Below, piece by piece: positions 8,620-31,770 of a stretch of DNA of 31,946 nt. The notes beneath the pieces are model-generated. The model ran no database searches. It saw only the letters and a program-made list of their open reading frames with translations, and was not told the origin of the DNA. Position 1 is the first letter of the stretch, and each line of letters opens with the position of its first letter. Made by a program: the position numbers and the translations under genes. The DNA is from Candidatus Iainarchaeum sp. (GTDB taxonomy: Archaea > Iainarchaeota > Iainarchaeia > Iainarchaeales > CSSED10-239), in the NCBI GenBank assembly GCA_937968065.1, contig CALBUD010000049.1, forward strand, positions 1 through 31,946. Direction: 5' to 3'.

Positions 8620-8775
8620 TTAAATAGGAAAAACATGAAATATACTTAATTTTATTTCTTTATCTTTTTGTTTATAAAAAACATTATTTCCTAAAACTTT
8701 TTCAATTTTTATTTTTTTTCCAAAATCTCTTCCCTGAACAATTATACATTCAGTTCCAACTTTTAAAACACCCAT
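8620..8775 (-). CDS. rpl14e: ribosomal protein eL14 (L14e), minimal 51-aa form; absent from the supplied ORF track
   Basis: My hand translation is MGVLKVGTECIIVQGRDFGKKIKIEKVLGNNVFYKQKDKEIKLSIFHVFPI followed by a stop. It shows a KOW-like G-x-x-C/V-x-x-x-x-G-R-D-x-G-K pattern and a terminal ...H-x-x-P like the L14e HLEPT. It occupies the syntenic slot next to eL34. Confidence 0.7.
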   Translation of the reverse strand: MGVLKVGTECIIVQGRDFGKKIKIEKVLGNNVFYKQKDKEIKLSIFHVFPI

Positions 8776-8788
8776 ATATCTTCACATT

Positions 8789-9130
8789 TTATTCTATTTT
8801 ATTTATTATCATATCAATATATTTTTTATATCTTAAGTCAACATCATCCATTGTTATGATATTATACTTTAACATAACTGCTTTTAGATAAATCTCTTTT
8901 CTAACATCAGGAGAAATCATTGATGCTAAAAGATTTTCAGGTCTTCTTTGTGTTTTTGTAAGTCTTAAAACTTCAAAAGGTCTTTTGTTATGAGGCATAC
9001 CTTGAAGAGGTTTTTTTGAAATTGCACAAACATGTTTACCTGGTGTTTTTTTTAAGATTAATCTTGAACTCTTTTTACCTGGAGTTTTTACAGTTTTATG
9101 TTTTTTAAATTTTTGATTAAAGCTTGGCAT
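8789..9130 (-). CDS. rpl34e: ribosomal protein eL34 (L34e)
   Basis: Contains KTVKTPGKKSSRLILKKTPGKHVCAISKKPLQG...TKTQRRPENLLAS. Only one Cys of the usual zinc-ribbon pattern is retained. GGTGA lies before the ATG. Confidence 0.8.
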   Translation of the reverse strand: MPSFNQKFKKHKTVKTPGKKSSRLILKKTPGKHVCAISKKPLQGMPHNKRPFEVLRLTKTQRRPENLLASMISPDVRKEIYLKAVMLKYNIITMDDVDLRYKKYIDMIINKIE

Positions 9131-9151
9131 ATTATTTCACCTAAATTAATT

Positions 9152-9610
9152 TTATTCTTTTAATTCTCCATCTGGATAATATTTTTTAACTAACTTTTTA
9201 TCATATATGTTGTTTATAACTAATGAGAAGATTACACCTAAGATAACATAAGCCCAAAAGCCAGAAACACTAAATAATAAAAAATTATATATAAATTCAT
9301 CATAATATTTTTTTACAAACCATAATAATGGAAAAGCAATTAATATCATTACAAGAAAAGATTTTTGTTGAAGCTTAAATTGTTTTCCAACAAGTCCAAA
9401 AGCCTCTTTTTGTTTTGCTTTTACTTCTTGCATTTTTTGTTCATTTGCAAGTTTTTTCATTTCTTTATTTATTTTTTTACTTTTTAATTTTATATAAAAA
9501 TAATCTTTAGGATTAATTGTAAAATGCTGTATTAACTTACTTAAAAATGCAAAGATTAAAGATATTAAAATCATATCAATCCAAAAATTTATTATAGGAG
9601 ATTCAAACAT
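9152..9610 (-). CDS. DUF106 / EMC3-TMCO1-like (Oxa1 superfamily) membrane protein
   Basis: 152 aa. It has a TM helix, then a basic coiled-coil hairpin (KKINKEMKKLANEQKMQEVKAKQKEAF), then two more TM segments. It sits immediately after secY, the conserved archaeal position for this family. Confidence 0.7.
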   Translation of the reverse strand: MFESPIINFWIDMILISLIFAFLSKLIQHFTINPKDYFYIKLKSKKINKEMKKLANEQKMQEVKAKQKEAFGLVGKQFKLQQKSFLVMILIAFPLLWFVKKYYDEFIYNFLLFSVSGFWAYVILGVIFSLVINNIYDKKLVKKYYPDGELKE

Positions 9611-23085: not shown

Positions 23086-26000
23086 TTAATTTTTAATATC
23101 TAGTGTTTCAAGTTCTTTTAAAGTTACTTGTTTTGTATTTATATCTTCTTCTTCAACTATAGATGTTTTTAGATCCAAATTTTCTTTTTTAACTACATTT
23201 TCTTCTACATTATCTGTAACTTTATCTTTCTTCTTTGAATAACGTCTTGAGATAAAATATATTAATAAAGCTATTAATAATATTAAGATGACAAATAAAA
23301 TAATATCTGAAGCTGTTTTAAAAGAAAAGAATCCTGTTAAAATACCAGGTTTATCAACTTCTTTTAAATTATATTCACCTTCTTTAATTATTTGATATGT
23401 ATCTAAATCATATATTTTATATTTTAGATTTGATAAATCATCATATTTTATTTTATAATTTTTAGAAACTTCAGTAAAAGCATCTACCCCAAATTCTAAA
23501 TCTCCTTGAATTTCAAAACTATTTACATCTTCAAAAGAAATTAAAAGATTTTTTTGTAAACTAGAAGAATTGTTTATAGTTAAAGTTAATAAAACTGTTT
23601 TATCTTCATCTAAAACATTTTCAATAACTGATGAGATTAAAAGTTCTTTTTCAACAATTCCTCTATCTATTAAAAAAGGTTCTTTTAAGATTAATCTTCC
23701 AAGGTTATATATCTCTATATATCCATTATATTCATTTAAATAACTATTGTCTGGTATAATTATTCCAAAATAAATGTTTTTAGTCATAGAGGGAGATAAT
23801 AAAAATTCATTTTTGTTTTCTGCTTCTGTAAATATATTTTTATTTAACATATTTTCAGATTTAACAAAAACAAAATCTTCTGGAAATCCAGAAAATTTAA
23901 CTTCAATTGTTTTGTTTTCAAAAGAAGTATTTTTTAAACTAAAATTACTTGTTATTCTTTTGTCATTTGAAGATATTTTTGAAACATATGTTGTAAAATA
24001 AATCTCTTGGTCTGAAGATGTCACTGGATAAAGATTTGTAAAATAAGAGATTGGCTCACAACCATTAAAAGTAACTGTATAAATTACATTTTTTGGATTT
24101 TTAATATTTAATAAATCTATTTGTTTTGAAAAATTATCATAACCAGATAAAGGTATTATTGGTTCTTGAATAACAGCACCAGTTGAAGTTACTTTTATAG
24201 AACCTGTTTTATTAGTTAGATTTTTAAAAGATATTTGTACAAAATCATTATCTAAAGAAATATATTTTGAATTTGGATAATTTAAAGTAAAATCACAAGA
24301 GTTTTCAAAAGAATATTGTTCAAAAGTAAAAAAACCTGATTTTGTATCTTTATAATCACAAGAAACTCCATTTGAAAATAAACCTTTTGCTAAAAGTTCA
24401 AAAGAACCAGGATTAGATGTTCCAACTCTAATTGTTCTTTGTGAATTTTTAGGTAAAAATAAAGATTTATCAATAATATTTATATTTGTGTTTCTTCTAT
24501 TTTCAAAAATAACATCATTTAATGAAAAATCTACAGAAGAATTATTATAAATGGTTATAAAATTTTCTCCATCTTTAAAATAAGAATCATTAAAACCTAT
24601 ATTTGAACAAATTGAATCTTTGTTTATTAAGATATTATAGTTAGTGTTAATTGCTGAATAAGAACAAAAATCACCATTTTCAAAATTACCTTGAATAGAT
24701 ATATTTCCAACAGAAGTTATATTTGATGGAATATTTGTTGTTCTTATATCAAAATTTAAAGAAGTATCTGATTTAGGGTAGATTGTATAATTTATAGGTT
24801 TTGGAAAAATATCTGTATAAAGAGTGTTATCTGTGTGATTTATTCCTGTTATTGTAAATTTTTTATTAGAATTATTAAAAATATAAAAACCATTTTCTTT
24901 TGAAAAATTAGTTTGTGTTTTTTCTTGTAAATTTAAATTTCTTGTAAAAATAGTTATATCTTTACATTCATTTGAAACAAAATTTTGAGAAGTTGGAGAT
25001 ACTCTTACAGTTATTGTTTCATTTATTCTACATCTTTTATCTTCTCTATTTTCTCTTTTTAAAAAACCTTCAACTCTTAAAGTTAAATTTTCTGTTTTTA
25101 AAAAATCAGTTTTTCCTGATCTTACATTAAAAGTTAATGATTTTTTAGAATCTTCATATATTCTAAAAATACTATTTCTTAAAGAAACATCTAAAATAGA
25201 ATTGCTTGGTTTATCTATTCTTATATTTTCAACTTCAAAATAATAATCTAAAGATTTGTTTAAAACATCTATTTCAAAAGATTTATTATCATTTGAAGAA
25301 ATATTAAAATAATTATTTGAAATTCTTAAATCACTACACTCTGCTGTATTTGGAAGATAACTATCATTTATTCTATATCTTACGTTATATACCTTTTCAC
25401 AAGTTAAATTTTCATATTTTCCAATAACTCTTATATCAAAAAAGTTAGTGTATGTTGAAGAAACAGTATCTGCAAATAAATCTATTTGTGCACTTCTTGT
25501 TTGATAAGGAGATATTGTAAAAGGATAAGAAATGTTTTCAATTTTAAGGTTTGTTGGGTTTATAGGGTTTGTTGTAACTGAAGTTATGTTTAGTGGTTTG
25601 TCTATAGTATTTATTATATACAAATTATAAAAATCTCTTTTATCTTCTGTTAAATAAATATCAGAAAATCCAGAAACATAAAAATCATCACAAGTCGGAA
25701 TATTTTGTGGAGGAGTTGGAGGAATCAGAGGAGTTGTTGAACCACCTGTTGTTCCTTGTGAATAAATATATGAACTTGTTGTTGTTTGATAAGTTCCATC
25801 TGATGATTGAAGATCTAAAACAACTTCATAAGATTGATAAGAAGGATCAAAATAAAACATAGGGTTATATGAATAAACATAGTTTGAATAAGGAGATAAA
25901 ATGAAAGAATGTGTTTGTATGTTATGAACAAAAATTCTTTGACCAAAAGGATTTATTCCATAAACTTTAGGTGACACAATTACATTTACAGGAGATGCAA

Positions 26001-26184
26001 AATTAGTTCCATATATTGAATATCTTAAATCTATTGTATCATATACATCTGCATATTGATATGGCATGTAGATTGGATGTGAAGATGTTCTTACATGTGC
26101 ATAATCAAAACCAATTGTGTATGCTGTAATTGCATTTGATAAAATTATTATTGAAAAAAACAATAACAAATATTTAAATTTCAT
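23086..26184 (-). CDS. large secreted, C-terminally membrane-anchored surface protein (S-layer/adhesin-like, repetitive beta-sandwich-type modules)
   Basis: It has an N-terminal signal peptide MKFKYLLLFFSIIILSNAITA. The roughly 950-aa body is Asn/Ser/Thr/Tyr-rich with many N-x-S/T sequons and recurring strand patterns such as F-x-I-x-N-x-S (YIFNNSNKKFTI, ITIYNNSSVDFSL, LTLTINNSSSL). A single C-terminal TM segment DIILFVILILLIALLIYFI is followed by RRYSKKK and a 54-aa charged tail. GGGGT lies before the ATG. Confidence 0.75.
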   Translation of the reverse strand: MKFKYLLLFFSIIILSNAITAYTIGFDYAHVRTSSHPIYMPYQYADVYDTIDLRYSIYGTNFASPVNVIVSPKVYGINPFGQRIFVHNIQTHSFILSPYSNYVYSYNPMFYFDPSYQSYEVVLDLQSSDGTYQTTTSSYIYSQGTTGGSTTPLIPPTPPQNIPTCDDFYVSGFSDIYLTEDKRDFYNLYIINTIDKPLNITSVTTNPINPTNLKIENISYPFTISPYQTRSAQIDLFADTVSSTYTNFFDIRVIGKYENLTCEKVYNVRYRINDSYLPNTAECSDLRISNNYFNISSNDNKSFEIDVLNKSLDYYFEVENIRIDKPSNSILDVSLRNSIFRIYEDSKKSLTFNVRSGKTDFLKTENLTLRVEGFLKRENREDKRCRINETITVRVSPTSQNFVSNECKDITIFTRNLNLQEKTQTNFSKENGFYIFNNSNKKFTITGINHTDNTLYTDIFPKPINYTIYPKSDTSLNFDIRTTNIPSNITSVGNISIQGNFENGDFCSYSAINTNYNILINKDSICSNIGFNDSYFKDGENFITIYNNSSVDFSLNDVIFENRRNTNINIIDKSLFLPKNSQRTIRVGTSNPGSFELLAKGLFSNGVSCDYKDTKSGFFTFEQYSFENSCDFTLNYPNSKYISLDNDFVQISFKNLTNKTGSIKVTSTGAVIQEPIIPLSGYDNFSKQIDLLNIKNPKNVIYTVTFNGCEPISYFTNLYPVTSSDQEIYFTTYVSKISSNDKRITSNFSLKNTSFENKTIEVKFSGFPEDFVFVKSENMLNKNIFTEAENKNEFLLSPSMTKNIYFGIIIPDNSYLNEYNGYIEIYNLGRLILKEPFLIDRGIVEKELLISSVIENVLDEDKTVLLTLTINNSSSLQKNLLISFEDVNSFEIQGDLEFGVDAFTEVSKNYKIKYDDLSNLKYKIYDLDTYQIIKEGEYNLKEVDKPGILTGFFSFKTASDIILFVILILLIALLIYFISRRYSKKKDKVTDNVEENVVKKENLDLKTSIVEEEDINTKQVTLKELETLDIKN

Positions 26185-26224: not shown

Positions 26225-26605
26225 TTATTGCCAACTAAATGAAACTCTAGTGTTTGGATTTACATAACTTATAGTGTTATAATTATAGTAAGTTGGATAA
26301 GTATATGTTGAATAACTATAACTTGGATAAGTATATGTTGAATAATATGAATTAACATAACTTGTGTATGTTGGAGTAATATACCCTGTATAAGGACTTA
26401 CATATCCTGAAGGATAATAGTATCCATAATCATAGTAACTGTTATAATAAGGTACATTTGGATAATATGGATAATTATAACTTACATTTGAATAAGATAT
26501 GTCAGTAACATCAAATCTTTTTGCAGCATCTACAGATATAGATACAAAAACAAGTGCAATTAAAATCATTAAAACACCTAGAATATTAATATATATTTTT
26601 TTCAT
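26225..26605 (-). CDS. small secreted or membrane-tethered tyrosine-rich low-complexity protein
   Basis: I moved the start to ATG 26605, which is preceded by GAGGTGA. The signal/anchor is MKKIYINILGVLMILIALVFVSISVDA. In the mature part I counted about 30 Tyr in about 99 residues (YNYPYYPNVPYYNSYYDYGYYYPSGY...). A 30-bp tandem duplication at 26291-26350 encodes Y-S-T-Y-T-Y-P units. Confidence 0.7.
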   Translation of the reverse strand: MKKIYINILGVLMILIALVFVSISVDAAKRFDVTDISYSNVSYNYPYYPNVPYYNSYYDYGYYYPSGYVSPYTGYITPTYTSYVNSYYSTYTYPSYSYSTYTYPTYYNYNTISYVNPNTRVSFSWQ

Positions 26606-26800
26606 ATACCCTTTCACCTCATATATTTTGTATATATATTTAGAGACAAATAGTTTATAAATGTTTTTAATTTAATAACTGAACGTAATTATCTACAAAA
26701 GGTATTAAAAAACAAATATTTTTTTAATAAAAAAAAAACAAACATCTTTAAATATATAATCATATATAGTAATATATAGAAAAATAAAAAAAGAATATCT

Positions 26801-27190
26801 ATGGTTGATCAATCTCAAAATATTTATCAAGATATTAAAGCATTACAGTCAAGCATTTTAGTTTTAAGACAAAAAATAAAATATCTTGTGCATAATGAAA
26901 AAATATTAGGTAGAAATATACTGGTTTTAAACAAAAAGATAGCTTCTGCTAATTTTTCTGGAAATGGAGATTCTGAAATTTCTAATGAAAAAATAGAAAA
27001 AATATTAAATACTTTAGAAAATCTAGATTCAAGAATAAAAGGAATTGAATCAACACTTGAAATGTTTTCAAAAAGATATGCAAGAGCAGAAGATTTAAAA
27101 GAAATGAAATATGTTATTGATAACATAAATCCTTTAGAGTATACAACTATTGAACAAGTTAAAAAAATCATTAAAGAAGAAAGTAAATGA
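26801..27190 (+). CDS. hypothetical coiled-coil protein (129 aa)
   Basis: The plus strand is A-rich here, as coding strands are in the rest of the window, and shows heptad-like Leu/Ile spacing. The competing minus-strand ORF is Phe/Ser-rich antisense shadow. A TATA-like CTTTAAATATATA lies about 40 nt upstream. Confidence 0.6.
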   Translation: MVDQSQNIYQDIKALQSSILVLRQKIKYLVHNEKILGRNILVLNKKIASANFSGNGDSEISNEKIEKILNTLENLDSRIKGIESTLEMFSKRYARAEDLKEMKYVIDNINPLEYTTIEQVKKIIKEESK

Positions 27191-27483
27191 ACTTATTCGA
27201 TTTTAGACAAAAATGGAATGAAGATAGTGTTTTAGCAAAAAAAAGAAAAGAACTTTTATGTGCGTCTAAAATTACTAATTCTCAAAAAATAAAATTAAAC
27301 TTATTAAATATTGAATTTTTAAAAGATGTTATAGCTGTTTCTAATGATCAAAGAAAAATTAATCAAAGTTTTAGAGAGATTTTAAGACTTAAGAGAAGTA
27401 ATACAGAAATTAAAAAAAAAATTGCTTTTAATAAAAAAATAAAATCTGCTTCTAAAAAACCAAAGATAAAAAGAAAAAGATAA
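27187..27483 (+). CDS. hypothetical basic protein (98 aa) with a poly-Lys/Arg C-terminus
   Basis: It has an ATGA start/stop overlap with the upstream ORF. The C-terminus is KKIKSASKKPKIKRKR. I recognised no family. Confidence 0.5.
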   Translation: MNLFDFRQKWNEDSVLAKKRKELLCASKITNSQKIKLNLLNIEFLKDVIAVSNDQRKINQSFREILRLKRSNTEIKKKIAFNKKIKSASKKPKIKRKR

Positions 27484-28026
27484 TTATTTAAAACTAGTTT
27501 TTAAAAATAAATAATAGGTTCCAATAACTATTATTATTAAGAATAATCTAAATAAAAAACCATGGAAAAAATCTGCAACAGATAGATCTAAAGAAACTAT
27601 TAAAAAGATTGTAAAAGTTATTCTTAAAAAATTAAAAAAGATTACTACTAAAAAAGATAAAAAGATCCATTTTATCTTTTGTTTAAAAGAAATGCCTAGG
27701 GTTGAAATGATAGCACTAAAAATCAAAGAAAATTCTAAAATACCTGTGCATAAAAAAACAATAGCTACAGGAAACTCTAAAGAAGGAATTATTAAGAAAG
27801 TTGTTTTTTCTATAAAATCATAATAAAAAGTAGAAGGTATATTATAAAAAATATTTAATAATTTACTTGACATTGATCCAAAGAAATAGTTTATGCCGTA
27901 ATAAATAATTGTCTTTGAAAGAACTAAATAAATAGAAATAAAAGAAATTAAAAAATAAATTAAAAAAAGAAAAGATTCTTTTAATTTCTTTTTATTTTTT
28001 AAATCTTTTTTTATTTTTTTAAACAT
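27484..28026 (-). CDS. minimal exosortase/archaeosortase-family membrane protein (putative sorting transpeptidase)
   Basis: 180 aa, about 5 TM segments. The ordered motifs are AIVFLCTGILEFS (family signature x-x-C-S/T-G), then about 40 residues later FFNFLRITF (N-x-x-R-I), then DFFHGFLFR (His/Arg). This is the Cys/Arg/His arrangement of EpsH/ArtA-type enzymes. It starts 9 nt after the eS8 stop. Confidence 0.55.
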   Translation of the reverse strand: MFKKIKKDLKNKKKLKESFLFLIYFLISFISIYLVLSKTIIYYGINYFFGSMSSKLLNIFYNIPSTFYYDFIEKTTFLIIPSLEFPVAIVFLCTGILEFSLIFSAIISTLGISFKQKIKWIFLSFLVVIFFNFLRITFTIFLIVSLDLSVADFFHGFLFRLFLIIIVIGTYYLFLKTSFK

Positions 28027-28035
28027 ATTAAAATA

Positions 28036-28431
28036 CTATTTTAACAAGACTGCAGTAACTTGTCCTGATTGACCAGGTCTTGAAGTTACTTTTGCTTTAT
28101 GTTCTTTACCATTAACATCAACAATAATAATTGAACCTTTTGTAATTACTTTTTGTCTTACAAAATGTTTATTTGCATTATTTTCTATAACATTTAAAAC
28201 TTTTGTTTTAAAGGTTTTTTCTTTATCAGAGATTAAAACATTTAAAACTTTGGTAATTTTTACTTTTTCATTACCGCCTCTTATTTTTTCTTTATGTCTT
28301 TTATCTTCAGTATCAACAATTGTTTTTGTAAATGTTCCACCTCTATCACTTAAGGATTTTGTTTTAGCATTTACAGAATTATTTATACCACCTGTTTTTT
28401 TTCTTTTTGATTTTTTAATCCATTCAACCAT
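28036..28431 (-). CDS. rps8e: ribosomal protein eS8 (S8e)
   Basis: Contains KSKRKKTGG...RGGNEKVKI...NANKHFVRQKVITKGSII...KVTSRPGQSGQVTAVLLK. Confidence 0.9.
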   Translation of the reverse strand: MVEWIKKSKRKKTGGINNSVNAKTKSLSDRGGTFTKTIVDTEDKRHKEKIRGGNEKVKITKVLNVLISDKEKTFKTKVLNVIENNANKHFVRQKVITKGSIIIVDVNGKEHKAKVTSRPGQSGQVTAVLLK

Positions 28432-28500
28432 TTATGTTCAACTCCTAAATATTTGTTTTTCCGTTTGTTTTTTAAACTAAATTATTTATAATTATTTAAT

Positions 28501-29028
28501 ATGACAGAAACATTCTCCATTTATAAAAAAAGTTACTATATAGAAAATATTTGTTGTTCTATAGATATTAATAATATAGAAAACTATTTAAAAAGAATTG
28601 AAAATATAGAAAAAAGGTATAAAAAAGAAATTGAGGTATTTTTAATACCTACAAACCTTATTTTTAAAGAAAATCAAATAAATTGGTCAATATTCATATC
28701 TAAAAGCAGATTTTTAGATAAAATCAATATTTCAAAGAAAATGTTTACAGAGGTTATTATGGTATTGTCTTACACTAATCAGATAAAAAACGTTTCAAAA
28801 GAATGGTATTTAAAAGAAGGTAGAAATATTTATTTTCTTACTATATTATCTAATAAAAAAATTAATAAAAAAGATTTAAAAGAAATAATAAATAATTTAG
28901 AAATTAAAAGTAAAAAAACAAAATTAAAGCCAAACATTAAACAAATTATAAAATATTATGATCTTAAAGATAATAAAAATATTGAAGAAAAAATTATTGA
29001 AAAAATGGCTTTATCTTTATATAAATAA
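28501..29028 (+). CDS. cgi121: KEOPS complex subunit Cgi121-like protein
   Basis: The central KMFTEVIMVLSYTNQIKNVSKEWYLKEGRNIYFL resembles the Cgi121 signature (F-x-x-E-I-L-x-x-x-S-G-x-x-Q-I-x-x-A-I...G). The C-terminal EEKIIEKMALS resembles the conserved terminal helix (V-L-E-K-I-A-L). This was recalled from the Methanocaldococcus protein and not searched. Confidence 0.5.
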   Translation: MTETFSIYKKSYYIENICCSIDINNIENYLKRIENIEKRYKKEIEVFLIPTNLIFKENQINWSIFISKSRFLDKINISKKMFTEVIMVLSYTNQIKNVSKEWYLKEGRNIYFLTILSNKKINKKDLKEIINNLEIKSKKTKLKPNIKQIIKYYDLKDNKNIEEKIIEKMALSLYK

Positions 29029-29029
29029 T

Positions 29030-29698
29030 TTAAAATTCTCTTTCAAAAAGATATTTTATTTTTTCTGCTTTTTTAGGTCCTAGTTTTGGAACCTTTCTTA
29101 ATTCCTTTACATCTGCATTAGATATTTTTTTAATACTTTTAAATTCTTTTAAAATTGATTTTGCAAGAGTTGGGCCAACATCTGGAAAAGATTGCATTAT
29201 AAATAATTGCCAGTCAGAAACATTCATTTTTGTTTTTGAATATCTTAATTTTAATTCATTATTTCCATTACCAATCTGTTCTTTTTTAGAAATTATAAAA
29301 AGAAATAAAGCTGTTTCTTTTTGATTTTTTGTAAAAAAAATAGGAATTCTGTAATTAAGACCAATTGAAGTTAAAAGGCCAATCATTGCTTTTTTATTAA
29401 GTCTTGCAGAATCTGAAAAAAGTTTAGATAAATCACCTTCAACTATTAATGCTGATCTTTTAATTTTTATAAGTTCTTGAAGTTGAGAAAAAATTCTACC
29501 ATCAATTATTGAAGTTTCTAAATCACTAATAGTTTTTCTTTCAATAACAATATCATCAGTTATTTGATAGTCTCCTACAGATAATTGTTCCATTATTAAT
29601 TTTATTTTTAAATTTTCTGTTGAAAGAGAAGATAATTCAGATAAAACAGAAGACGCATTCTCTCTTGTATCGCAAATAATTGTTATTTCTTTTGACAT
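29030..29698 (-). CDS. ERCC4-type (XPF/Hef) structure-specific endonuclease with C-terminal (HhH)2
   Basis: Contains DTRE...VGDYQITDDIVIERKTISDLETSIIDGRIFSQ (the GDxn-ERKxxxD active-site signature). The tail has two helix-hairpin-helix motifs (FPDVGPTLAKSIL, VPKLGPKKAEKI). GTGAT lies before the ATG. Confidence 0.85.
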   Translation of the reverse strand: MSKEITIICDTRENASSVLSELSSLSTENLKIKLIMEQLSVGDYQITDDIVIERKTISDLETSIIDGRIFSQLQELIKIKRSALIVEGDLSKLFSDSARLNKKAMIGLLTSIGLNYRIPIFFTKNQKETALFLFIISKKEQIGNGNNELKLRYSKTKMNVSDWQLFIMQSFPDVGPTLAKSILKEFKSIKKISNADVKELRKVPKLGPKKAEKIKYLFEREF

Positions 29699-29708
29699 TT
29701 AAAATCAC

Positions 29709-30167
29709 TTATACTAATTTAGGCCTTATTATTCCACCATGAAAAAAACCAGAATAAATTGTTTCGCCCTTATAATCAATTCTTTCTTTTCCAATAAATT
29801 TTTCAATATTTCCATTAACATCTGAAAAATATTCAAAATCATTTTCTTTATAGATGTTTGGGCCTCTAAAAGGAAATCTTTCTTCAACATTTAATAAAGC
29901 TTTTTTTAAAAAATCATAAATTTCTTTTTCTAAAATTAAATGAGTTTCTATAAAACCATAATAGTTTAAAGACCAAATAAAATTATCTTTTTCAAAAATA
30001 ATCTCTTGTCCTGAAAAAGGGTTATATCCATAATATTTATCAACATACTTATAATTTTCTTTTTCATAAATTAACTCTTTTGAACCATCTTTATTTAATT
30101 TATCTGTTATACGAGAAGATGCATAAGTGTTTTTTTTAGCTTCTATTAAAAAATCAATAAATTCCAT
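29709..30167 (-). CDS. DUF5680-like conserved protein of unknown function
   Basis: I moved the start to ATG 30167 (MEFIDFL), which is preceded by AAGGAGGA; the track start is TTG. The pattern FL-x-x-AK-x-x-TYA ... Y-x-D-x-Y-x-G-x-x-x-F-x-G-x-E ... W-x-x-N-Y-Y-G ... FLK-x-AL ... PFRGP ... F-x-G-x-E-x-I ... FHGG matches my recollection of that family. Confidence 0.5.
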   Translation of the reverse strand: MEFIDFLIEAKKNTYASSRITDKLNKDGSKELIYEKENYKYVDKYYGYNPFSGQEIIFEKDNFIWSLNYYGFIETHLILEKEIYDFLKKALLNVEERFPFRGPNIYKENDFEYFSDVNGNIEKFIGKERIDYKGETIYSGFFHGGIIRPKLV

Positions 30168-30183
30168 GTTTTTTCCTCCTTTT

Positions 30184-31770
30184 TTAAAAATCAACTATTG
30201 TTTTTTGAACTTTTTTCTTTTTAGAATCTTTTAAAAAATCTTTTTTTGACATATTAATTAAATTTTTATTCATAGTTTTTTCTTTTTTTAAAGATACAAA
30301 ATAATAATGTTCATCAATAGTATCTTTGTTTAAAAGAATAACAACTTTTCCTGCATTAAATCTTCCTGTTCTTCCTCTTCTTTGTATGGATCTTATCTCA
30401 GAAGGAACAGCATCATAAAAAATAACTAAATCAACAGAAGGTATGTCAAGACCTTCTTCACCTACAGAAGTGCATACTAAAACATTGAAGACACCCTCTT
30501 TAAAATCAGAAATTATTTTAGATTGTTCTTTTTGAGATAATCCTTTATCTTTTTCTTTACTTGCTTGTCCTACAAATCTTGCAGCAGAAACCCCTTCTTG
30601 ATTATTTAAAATAAAAGTTAAATGTTGAGCACAATCTCTAAAATTATTAAATATTAAAATTTTTGAATTTTTATTGTTTTTTAAAAAAGTGGTTGTAAGA
30701 GAAAGAATTTCTTTTTCTTTAGAATATAAGTCTTTTTTTAAATCTAAATTAACAAGTAAAGAATAAACCTCTAATATTTCTTTAGAATTTACAAACTGAT
30801 GAATAGTTTTTGTTGTTTTAGAAGATTTAGACTCTACAAATATTTTTTCTAAATAATTTTTTAAAGGTAAAAAACCTTGAGTTTCAATTAATTCTTTTGC
30901 ATGATATGCTTTTAAAGCAAGAGAAGTGTTTATTAAAGCTACAAAATTTAAAGAATTTTTAGATTTTTCAAGTCTTTTGAATAATAAGTGTTGAATCATA
31001 AGAATTTGTTTTTTTGTAAAATTATTTGAGATAGATATATTTAATTTTCTTAAAATATTTATTTTTTTAAAAATAAAAAAATCTAAGATTTTAGATATTT
31101 TTTTTGAAATTAAATCAAGCTCTACAAAAATAGTTTCTATTTCTATTTCTTTAATATAATCTATAACATCAATATCTTTATCTGTTCTTATCTCTATATG
31201 ATTTATTTTTAAATTATCTGCAACCTCTTTAATTTTTGTTTTATTATGTCCTGGAGATGCTGTTAAAGCTAATCTTTTTGTTTTTTCTGAAAAAAAAGAA
31301 GAGATTGAAACATAAGCATAATCACCTATCGCTCTATGAGCTTCATCAAAAATAATTAAATTAAAATTTTCTTTTTTTAAAAGATTATTTTTAATATCAT
31401 TATTTATTGTTTGAGGAGTTGCACAGATTATTTGTCCTTTTTTTGAATAAATTTCTTTTCTTTTTTCTGGAAGAATTTGTCCAGTTAATAATATTATCTT
31501 TTCTAAAGAAATATCTAAAACTTTTTCTAAAGATTTTTTATGTTGAGAAACTAAAGGTTTTGTTGGAGCTAATAAAATTATTGATTTTGAAGCATCATAA
31601 ACAGAACCTATAAGTAAAGCCGCAATAATTGTTTTTCCAAGACCAGTTGGAGCTACAACTAAAGTATTTGCATCAATTGCTTTTGCAGTTAAAAGCTCTT
31701 GATATAATCTTTTTTCTACAATATTTTTTTTAATATTTGGAAAAGAGATAAATTTATCTTCAATTGACAT
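30184..31770 (-). CDS. hef: Hef/FANCM/Mph1-type superfamily-2 DNA helicase (helicase half of Hef)
   Basis: Motif I APTGLGKT, Ia LAPTKPLV, II DEAH, III TASPG, an inserted helical domain, V TSVGEEGLDIP and VI QRRGRTGR. It stands in the same operon as an ERCC4 nuclease. Confidence 0.85.
   Translation of the reverse strand: MSIEDKFISFPNIKKNIVEKRLYQELLTAKAIDANTLVVAPTGLGKTIIAALLIGSVYDASKSIILLAPTKPLVSQHKKSLEKVLDISLEKIILLTGQILPEKRKEIYSKKGQIICATPQTINNDIKNNLLKKENFNLIIFDEAHRAIGDYAYVSISSFFSEKTKRLALTASPGHNKTKIKEVADNLKINHIEIRTDKDIDVIDYIKEIEIETIFVELDLISKKISKILDFFIFKKINILRKLNISISNNFTKKQILMIQHLLFKRLEKSKNSLNFVALINTSLALKAYHAKELIETQGFLPLKNYLEKIFVESKSSKTTKTIHQFVNSKEILEVYSLLVNLDLKKDLYSKEKEILSLTTTFLKNNKNSKILIFNNFRDCAQHLTFILNNQEGVSAARFVGQASKEKDKGLSQKEQSKIISDFKEGVFNVLVCTSVGEEGLDIPSVDLVIFYDAVPSEIRSIQRRGRTGRFNAGKVVILLNKDTIDEHYYFVSLKKEKTMNKNLINMSKKDFLKDSKKKKVQKTIVDF

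Follow-up and report, generated by a model that had tools for sequence, protein, structure and literature searches.

The window considered here, the whole stretch of 31,946 nucleotides of Candidatus Iainarchaeum sp. DNA that was analysed (assembly GCA_937968065.1, contig CALBUD010000049.1), has a GC content of 22–27% and carries on its minus strand a gene, at 27484..28026, whose open reading frame encodes from its ATG a 180-residue protein matching the exosortase/archaeosortase model TIGR04178. Directly upstream of this putative sortase gene, on the same strand, is the gene for the 131-residue ribosomal protein eS8 (28036..28431), an identity proposed at first from the sequence only and now supported by Pfam PF01201 (Ribosomal_S8e, E = 6e-24) and by TIGR00307, at 79.1 bits against a cutoff of 78.25. 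The spacer between the two genes, which reads TAG-tattttaat-ATG on the coding strand, is the 9 nucleotides (28027..28035, minus strand) that had been counted before, and no Shine–Dalgarno (SD)-like sequence was seen within it ahead of the sortase gene. Some 1.3 kb from the sortase gene, also on the minus strand, lies a gene for a 1032-residue secreted surface protein (23086..26184), placed immediately upstream of the L3 ribosomal-protein operon, with which begins an archaeal ribosomal-protein superoperon that extends along the minus strand of the window from L3 and L4 past SecY as far as S2; aIF5B is encoded in the window as well. On balance, we consider it probable that the 180-residue protein is a lineage-specific archaeosortase of the Iainarchaeota/Diapherotrites (DPANN), which trims the membrane anchor of this nearby surface protein.

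Membership of the exosortase/archaeosortase family, which had been suggested from a few motifs, is now backed by profile comparison and is close to certain. TIGR04178, which is the NCBIfam signature of the family, aligns over its positions 2–93 of 97 with residues 88–176 of the protein at 41.6 bits, the cutoff being 23 (E = 1.2e-10), which puts the pattern well outside what chance would give, and relatives of the protein score 32–63 bits against the same model. Forty relatives were found by database search and 70 by profile search, nearly all of them 174–191 residues long, and their genome records belong to the Iainarchaeota/Diapherotrites under the names Ca. Forterrea multitransposorum, Ca. 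Iainarchaeum and ‘Ca. ainarchaeum’, Forterrea being a Diapherotrite (PMC5905446). A third homology search led to ArtB-like bacterial (Caldisericia) proteins, not to ArtA; the ArtA model TIGR04125 (cutoff 75 bits) gives no match to the 180-residue protein at E ≤ 1, and the profile–profile alignment (hhalign) of the sortase clade with the ArtB-like clade has a probability of 99.0% and E = 3.6e-18. Many close homologues already carry the NCBI or JGI label ‘exosortase/archaeosortase family protein’, and Pfam PF09721 (Exosortase_EpsH) is precomputed on about half of them, with some of these matches flagged as weak. In other words, the assignment to the family is already automatic in the public annotation of close homologues, and it is the clade itself that appears to be uncurated. 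Reviews describe archaeosortases in a subset of Euryarchaeota (PMC6098224), and a literature search returned no paper that links them with Iainarchaeota, Diapherotrites or Forterrea.

The residues from which the family assignment was first proposed are present as described, with C93 in FLCTGILEFS, R135 in NFLRITF 42 residues further on, and H155 in HGFLFR, that is, in family order. Across 24 family members (alignment A1) C93, E98, N132, R135 and H155 are invariant. When the comparison is extended to 18 relatives with identities down to 11% (alignment A3, which takes in distant small sortases, including a bacterial Caldisericia clade with ArtB as its best match), the only invariant residues are I89, C93, G95, N132, R135 and H155. 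Moreover, hhalign pairs C93, N132, R135 and H155, column for column, with the invariant Cys, Asn, Arg and His of the ArtB-like clade, which supports the catalytic Cys/Arg/His arrangement that the sequence-only reading had supposed; R160, also within HGFLFR, is conserved in the Iainarchaeota clade and not in the ArtB-like relatives. Haft describes Cys, Arg and His as nearly perfectly conserved in the family and as its suspected catalytic triad (bioRxiv 10.1101/2023.06.07.544157), and in ArtA residues C173, R214 and R253 are experimentally critical, with a spacing of 41 between the first two (PMC9263693). Judged from this spacing, which is 42 in the 180-residue protein, C93 and R135 would correspond to C173 and R214 of Haloferax ArtA. 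An active enzyme would be expected to hold the triad and the Asn strictly invariant while the rest of its sequence drifts to 11% identity, and the residue pattern makes it likely that the protein is one.

Kyte–Doolittle hydropathy gives four membrane-spanning peaks, at residues 19–37, 79–112, 118–145 and 151–175, and over 24 sequences the mean number of Lys and Arg residues is 14.8 in the N-terminus, the loop 113–119 and the C-terminus taken together, as against 1.8 in the other loops. By the positive-inside rule, this skew indicates four transmembrane (TM) helices with both termini inside. Hydropathy and charge together would therefore place C93, N132, R135 and H155 all near the outer leaflet, in agreement with the outside position for the Cys on which the sequence-only reading depended. 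The active site of ArtA is likewise listed at the outer membrane face (PMC9263693), and it is at the outer leaflet that a type-I anchored substrate would present its cleavage motif. A confident AlphaFold2 model made with the family alignment, the helices of which are consistent with the predicted topology, has a mean predicted local distance difference test score (pLDDT) of 91.7 and a predicted template modelling score (pTM) of 0.84, with helices at 12–38, 41–60, 96–108, 114–145 and 148–178 and a small beta-sheet at 66–89; C93 sits in an unwound stretch immediately before helix 96–108. Helix 41–60 was considered as a fifth TM helix and dropped, its Kyte–Doolittle mean being about 0.5 and its insertion putting the Lys-rich loop 113–119 and the Lys-rich C-terminus outside. 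Searches of the PDB by sequence, with the single sequence and with the profile of alignment A1, returned nothing at E ≤ 10, and a Foldseek search of the PDB with the AlphaFold2 model gave a best E of 0.9, all matches being unrelated helical proteins.

What such an enzyme might act upon is suggested by its surroundings. All of the approximately 19 distinct Iainarchaeota contexts fetched share a common gene order, consisting of cgi121 on the opposite strand, eS8, the sortase gene, one to three variable genes, a gene for a 129-residue coiled-coil protein on the opposite strand, in many cases a small secreted protein rich in Tyr, then a large secreted protein and finally the L3 operon. The large secreted protein of the window has a Sec-type signal peptide at its N-terminus and no Pfam or NCBIfam domain; its homologues, 803–1075 residues long, occupy the same position in 15 loci, all with Sec-type N-termini. 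Near its C-terminus, at residues 946–986 (23227..23349, minus strand), alignment with the C-termini of 14–15 homologues reveals a candidate tripartite sorting signal, in which the sequence reads ...KPGILTGFFSFKTASD-IILFVILILLIALLIYFI-SRRYSKKK before a charged tail of 46 residues. Its parts are a motif, P-G-ILTGFFSF (948–955), a TM helix (961–978) and a basic cluster, RRYSKKK (980–986). The homologues in the 14 other loci all have [LI]-[ST]-[GA]-F-[FL]-[STN]-[LF], then four to six residues, a hydrophobic helix and a Lys/Arg cluster, and in four of them (L019, L020, L021 and L024) the protein stops right at the basic cluster (RKR, RKK or RRR), the last residues being, for example, ...SPLSAFFSLRNTSFILLGVVALIVLFLIFRKR or ...FRKR. 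A motif followed by a TM helix and a basic cluster is the classic design of the targets of sortases, exosortases and archaeosortases (PMC6098224; bioRxiv 10.1101/2023.06.07.544157). In comparisons of the C-terminal fragments with the Loki-, Heimdall- and PEF-CTERM and LPXTG models, the matches are sub-threshold and confined to the TM and basic part, with none to the motif part, so that the Iainarchaeota signal appears, on these comparisons, to be an uncurated variant. PGF-CTERM (TIGR04126) gives no match at E ≤ 10 on either the full proteins or the C-terminal fragments, and a phmmer search with the 55-residue C-terminal segment against 1.84 billion representatives gave no hits at E ≤ 0.001, the query being too short and too hydrophobic for the search to have power. 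The charged tail of the window protein (residues 987–1032; 23086..23226, minus strand) is predicted to be cytoplasmic, and its closing residues form a conserved motif, [QE]-[IV]-T-[LF]-x-x-[LV]-D, whereas deeper relatives of the protein end straight after RKR and have no such tail.

In none of the 15 loci are the sortase and the large protein separated by more than about 2 kb, even though the large proteins are only 31–57% identical to one another. Haft recognises dedicated systems by an enzyme that is regularly encoded near a single target (bioRxiv 10.1101/2023.06.07.544157), and the regular closeness of the sortase to this single large protein fits it. We are thus inclined to regard the neighbouring protein of about 1000 residues as the substrate of the sortase, the signal and the synteny both pointing that way. 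The principal alternative is an archaeosortase that serves many proteins, like ArtA with PGF-CTERM, such that its substrates would be scattered over the genome and the surface protein would be one of them or none. Most of the characterised exosortase and archaeosortase systems do have several to dozens of targets (PMC6098224), and the inspection for motif-bearing proteins covered only about 8 kb on either side of each sortase gene. Within the 32-kb window and the fetched loci, the motif scan found the syntenic large protein and only one other, a non-homologous beta-helix protein of 498 residues (L004:7158-8654), whose C-terminus is similar in ending with LLSEFKNSW, a TM helix and KHKG. This scarcity of further motif-bearing reading frames, together with an adjacency that outlasts such divergence, makes a one-to-many enzyme unlikely, and the single neighbouring surface protein remains the preferred target.

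With regard to its expression, the sortase gene lies directly behind eS8 in all of the approximately 19 Iainarchaeota contexts, at sortase identities of 42–75%. The gap between the two genes spans −4 to +46 nucleotides, with an ATGA overlap in five loci, 5–20 nucleotides in most of the others and 46 in one, counts in which the start codon is ambiguous in two loci. Alignment of the cgi121–eS8 intergenic region from eight loci brings out a conserved TATA-like element, TTTAAAA(A), and an SD-like element, AGGAG or GGTGA, both upstream of eS8 only; in the window these are TTTAAAAAA (28468-28476) and AGGAG (28442-28446), lying 5' of eS8 within 28442..28476 on the minus strand, and they are likely to be the promoter and ribosome-binding site of an eS8–sortase unit. 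On the downstream side, the stop codon of a convergent gene for a 98-residue basic protein (plus strand, 27481-27483) abuts that of the sortase gene (27484-27486) with zero bases between them, and this abutting stop, with the divergent cgi121 at the other end, bounds the unit to exactly two genes. As the two stops abut and there is no terminator-like structure there, the plus- and minus-strand transcripts probably overlap at 27481..27486. Over 27300-28600, which covers both genes, a scan designed for bacteria found no terminator-like site, and a scan of bacterial type, uninformative for an archaeon, found eight promoter-like sites against 10.1 ± 2.8 expected. Given the conserved adjacency, the ATGA overlaps, the TATA-like box and SD-like element upstream of eS8 only and the lack of a terminator between the genes, co-transcription of eS8 and the sortase gene, with translational coupling, is likely on the arrangement of the sequences.

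It may be asked whether the adjacency is instead neutral synteny, the sortase gene having a promoter inside the eS8 coding region and being neither co-transcribed nor coupled. TATA-like strings are everywhere at the GC content of the window, promoter-like sites are neither enriched nor depleted in the scan just described, and all six of the more distant small sortases examined (L026, L027/28, L029, L030/31, L032 and L033/34) have no eS8 neighbour, such that the link is evidently unnecessary for function. Nevertheless, five independent ATGA overlaps and spacers of mostly 5–20 nucleotides are typical of operons, neither an SD-like sequence nor a terminator lies between the genes, the conserved TATA-like box and SD-like element stand upstream of eS8 only, and the pair has been retained through considerable divergence of the sortase. 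Purely neutral neighbours, with no shared transcript, are therefore improbable, and a shared eS8–sortase transcript is the better account. The sequence-only reading had gone further and tied surface-protein processing to a ribosomal gene; the adjacency on which it drew is constant within the Iainarchaeota contexts, but no general tie follows from it, since the link is absent from the six distant sortases and so is lineage-specific. It is a conserved gene order of a compact genome, confined to one DPANN lineage and with no functional tie to the ribosome.

The same six distant sortases all have very large proteins, from 1079 to more than 2600 residues in length, encoded only a few genes away, a setting that speaks for the surface protein as the substrate in the window as well. 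Giant surface proteins stand beside them at L029 (1514..5525), L026 (5001..9185), L030, L032 and L033, and some of these neighbours (L029:1514-4972; L026:6811-8622 and 8634-9185) have tripartite signals of other kinds at their C-termini, such as ...PAFTWWAALLMLISMLGIVLFLKEKKVKRI and ...PEINFGFVAMIGIMVLFSISFFSSKR. These loci may represent further uncurated pairs of enzyme and signal.

By analogy with ArtA (PMC7157517, PMC9263693), the following mechanism can be proposed. The surface protein encoded at 23086-26184 would be exported by the Sec pathway and then be retained in the membrane by its C-terminal helix, which would dock within the membrane into the four-TM sortase, whose N- and C-termini would face the cytoplasm. 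At the outer leaflet C93, aided by H155 and by R135 with N132, would attack in or near [LI]-[ST]-[GA]-F-[FL] to give a thioester, and this would be resolved either by water or, as has been suggested for ArtA, by the amine of a lipid, such that the mature protein would be released or lipid-anchored. The TM helix would be left behind, along with the conserved charged tail in the subclade of the window. The sortase gene itself would form the second cistron of the eS8–sortase unit, transcribed from the promoter upstream of eS8, and, having no ribosome-binding site of its own, would be translated by coupling or re-initiation, which would result in constitutive, growth-linked expression at a low level. 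In its fullest form this reading would describe a dedicated Iainarchaeota system, hitherto undescribed, in which a minimal four-TM enzyme on the eS8 transcript and a new class of signal ([LI]-[ST]-[GA]-F-[FL], a TM helix and a Lys/Arg cluster) mature a single major envelope protein, and in which, in the window's subclade, cleavage also releases a membrane-anchored tail of 46–69 residues with a possible role of its own; this we put forward only tentatively.

Several observations weigh against the reading of the protein as an archaeosortase acting on its neighbour. The 180-residue protein has no Pfam match at E ≤ 1, PF09721 included, so that its membership of the family rests on the NCBIfam and profile–profile evidence, and the specific subfamily models score far under their cutoffs (heimdallarchaeosortase 20.1 against 130 bits, ArtD 9.5 against 125, pacearchaeosortase 9.5 against 80). 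These scores, far below all curated cutoffs, together with a candidate signal that matches no CTERM motif part, make the protein appear, by sequence comparison, to belong to an uncurated sister subfamily of the lineage-specific small archaeosortases of NCBIfam. In the AlphaFold2 model helix 41–60 comes a two-residue turn after TM1, and were it membrane-spanning the predicted face of the active site would flip. As for the substrate, its motif stands four to six residues away from the hydrophobic core, whereas PGF-CTERM and PEP-CTERM have theirs directly against the helix (bioRxiv 10.1101/2023.06.07.544157). Moreover, in the window and its closest relatives a charged tail of 46–69 residues follows the basic cluster, so that the signal is not strictly C-terminal. 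ArtA provides a precedent for processing at a signal that lies short of the very C-terminus (PMC6098224). The large proteins are, furthermore, homologous over their whole length, and the mean column conservation of the motif block is 0.62, as compared with 0.49 overall and 0.7–0.79 in several other blocks; since the motif block is not the best conserved, conservation alone is no proof of a sorting signal. Finally, at 25% GC an internal promoter within eS8 is conceivable.

Some of these observations would also suit a catalytically inactive or repurposed member of the family, for example a membrane scaffold or a chaperone for the surface protein, inasmuch as none of the specific subfamily models reaches its cutoff and no solved structure or biochemical study of the small members was found. 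The Cys, Arg, His and Asn are nonetheless held strictly invariant through all the sequence drift described above, which makes an inactive protein very unlikely and favours an active archaeosortase. Least credible of all is a real coupling of ribosome production to envelope maturation, through eS8-dependent regulation or stoichiometric co-expression for instance, which would accord with an eS8–sortase pair conserved throughout the clade and with a candidate substrate gene directly upstream of the L3 operon, but for which the sequences hold nothing that points to interaction, the link being absent outside the Iainarchaeota lineage and the region being a housekeeping block (L1/L10/L12, Hef, XPF, Cgi121, eS8 ... 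L3 operon) that synteny explains more simply.

Other features of the region can be described more briefly. Between the surface-protein gene and the sortase gene the window contains a gene for a 130-residue secreted, Tyr-rich protein of low complexity (26225..26617, minus strand), taken from the list of open reading frames, and at least 10 loci have a homologue in this place. The gene immediately precedes that of the surface protein on the same strand. Its product, in which a signal peptide leads into an extremely Tyr-rich stretch (YNYPYYPNVPYYNSYYDYGYYYPSGY...), matches no family in Pfam or NCBIfam and may be an envelope component. The gene for the predicted coiled-coil protein of 129 residues (26801..27190, plus strand) converges on the eS8–sortase unit in every case. 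The protein is 60–83% identical over all the Iainarchaeota loci, which is above the conservation of the sortase, and has no Pfam, NCBIfam or PDB match. It was considered as a part of the sortase system and dropped, as it lacks a TM helix, a signal peptide and a family match. On the other side of eS8, at 29030..31770 (minus strand), an XPF/ERCC4 nuclease (222 residues) and a Hef-type helicase (528 residues) are encoded by separate genes with a DUF5680 gene between them, an arrangement that recurs in several relatives; Hef occurs in many archaea as one helicase–nuclease fusion. In one relative (L008, 446..2600) a reverse transcriptase (RVT_1) and a bAvd-like gene, which are hallmarks of a diversity-generating retroelement, lie just upstream of cgi121 and eS8.

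The wider meaning of the locus is that, in a DPANN lineage with a reduced genome, a very small archaeosortase has been kept beside what is probably its only target. Experimental work on archaeosortases has, to our knowledge, been carried out almost only in Haloferax, and a compact pair of this kind, with an enzyme of 180 residues and a signal of about 45, could serve as a minimal model in which to study how this protease family is built and how it works, both of which are still unsolved. The results also suggest that curation in the style of NCBIfam could gain one sortase subfamily and one CTERM signal, while the eS8 linkage has little consequence beyond operon annotation. What is new, as far as the sequences allow, is a probable new flavour of sorting signal and a lineage-specific operon arrangement; the family itself is known.

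Among known systems, the pair is first to be compared with ArtA and PGF-CTERM of Haloferax, with which it shares the TIGR04178 signature, the conserved Cys and Arg at almost the same spacing (42 as against 41) and a predicted active site at the outer face, and also a likely target that is the main large surface protein, with an x-G/A-F motif, a TM helix and a basic cluster. It differs in that its host is a DPANN archaeon and not a euryarchaeote, in that its motif is [ST]-[GA]-F-[FL] and not P-G-F and stands at a distance from the helix, and in that no linkage to pssA or pssD was seen in the window. The enzyme is also much shorter than ArtA, at 180 as against 303 residues, and had been described earlier as miniature. 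ArtA, however, belongs to the long forms, its model having 271 positions and its gene in H. volcanii 912 bp (PMC7157517), and the small size of the present enzyme is unremarkable because models of 150–200 residues are typical of many curated subfamilies, among them ArtD and XrtM (each 150), ArtE (153), ArtB (156), XrtH (158), ArtF (166), pacearchaeosortase NF033505 (167), XrtX (168), XrtF (174), XrtG (187) and heimdallarchaeosortase NF045528 (199).

It is indeed with the small archaeosortases of this class, namely pacearchaeosortase, heimdallarchaeosortase (with Heimdall-CTERM) and ArtB, ArtD, ArtE and ArtF, that the enzyme has its size and its Cys/Arg/His core in common, and the general plan is also the same, in that both the sortase subfamily and the C-terminal signal are particular to a single archaeal lineage. 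It is set apart from them by its scores of 20.1/130, 9.5/80 and 9.5/125 bits against the heimdallarchaeosortase, pacearchaeosortase and ArtD models and by a candidate signal that matches no CTERM motif part. In the organisation of the locus, the closest likeness is to JDVT-CTERM with MrtJ (bioRxiv 10.1101/2023.06.07.544157), where again an enzyme and a single protein with a tripartite signal are regularly encoded close together. The enzyme families are nonetheless unrelated, MrtJ being a CPBP glutamic protease as opposed to an exosortase-type Cys enzyme, and in the Iainarchaeota the enzyme and its likely target are two to three opposite-strand genes apart and not co-operonic.

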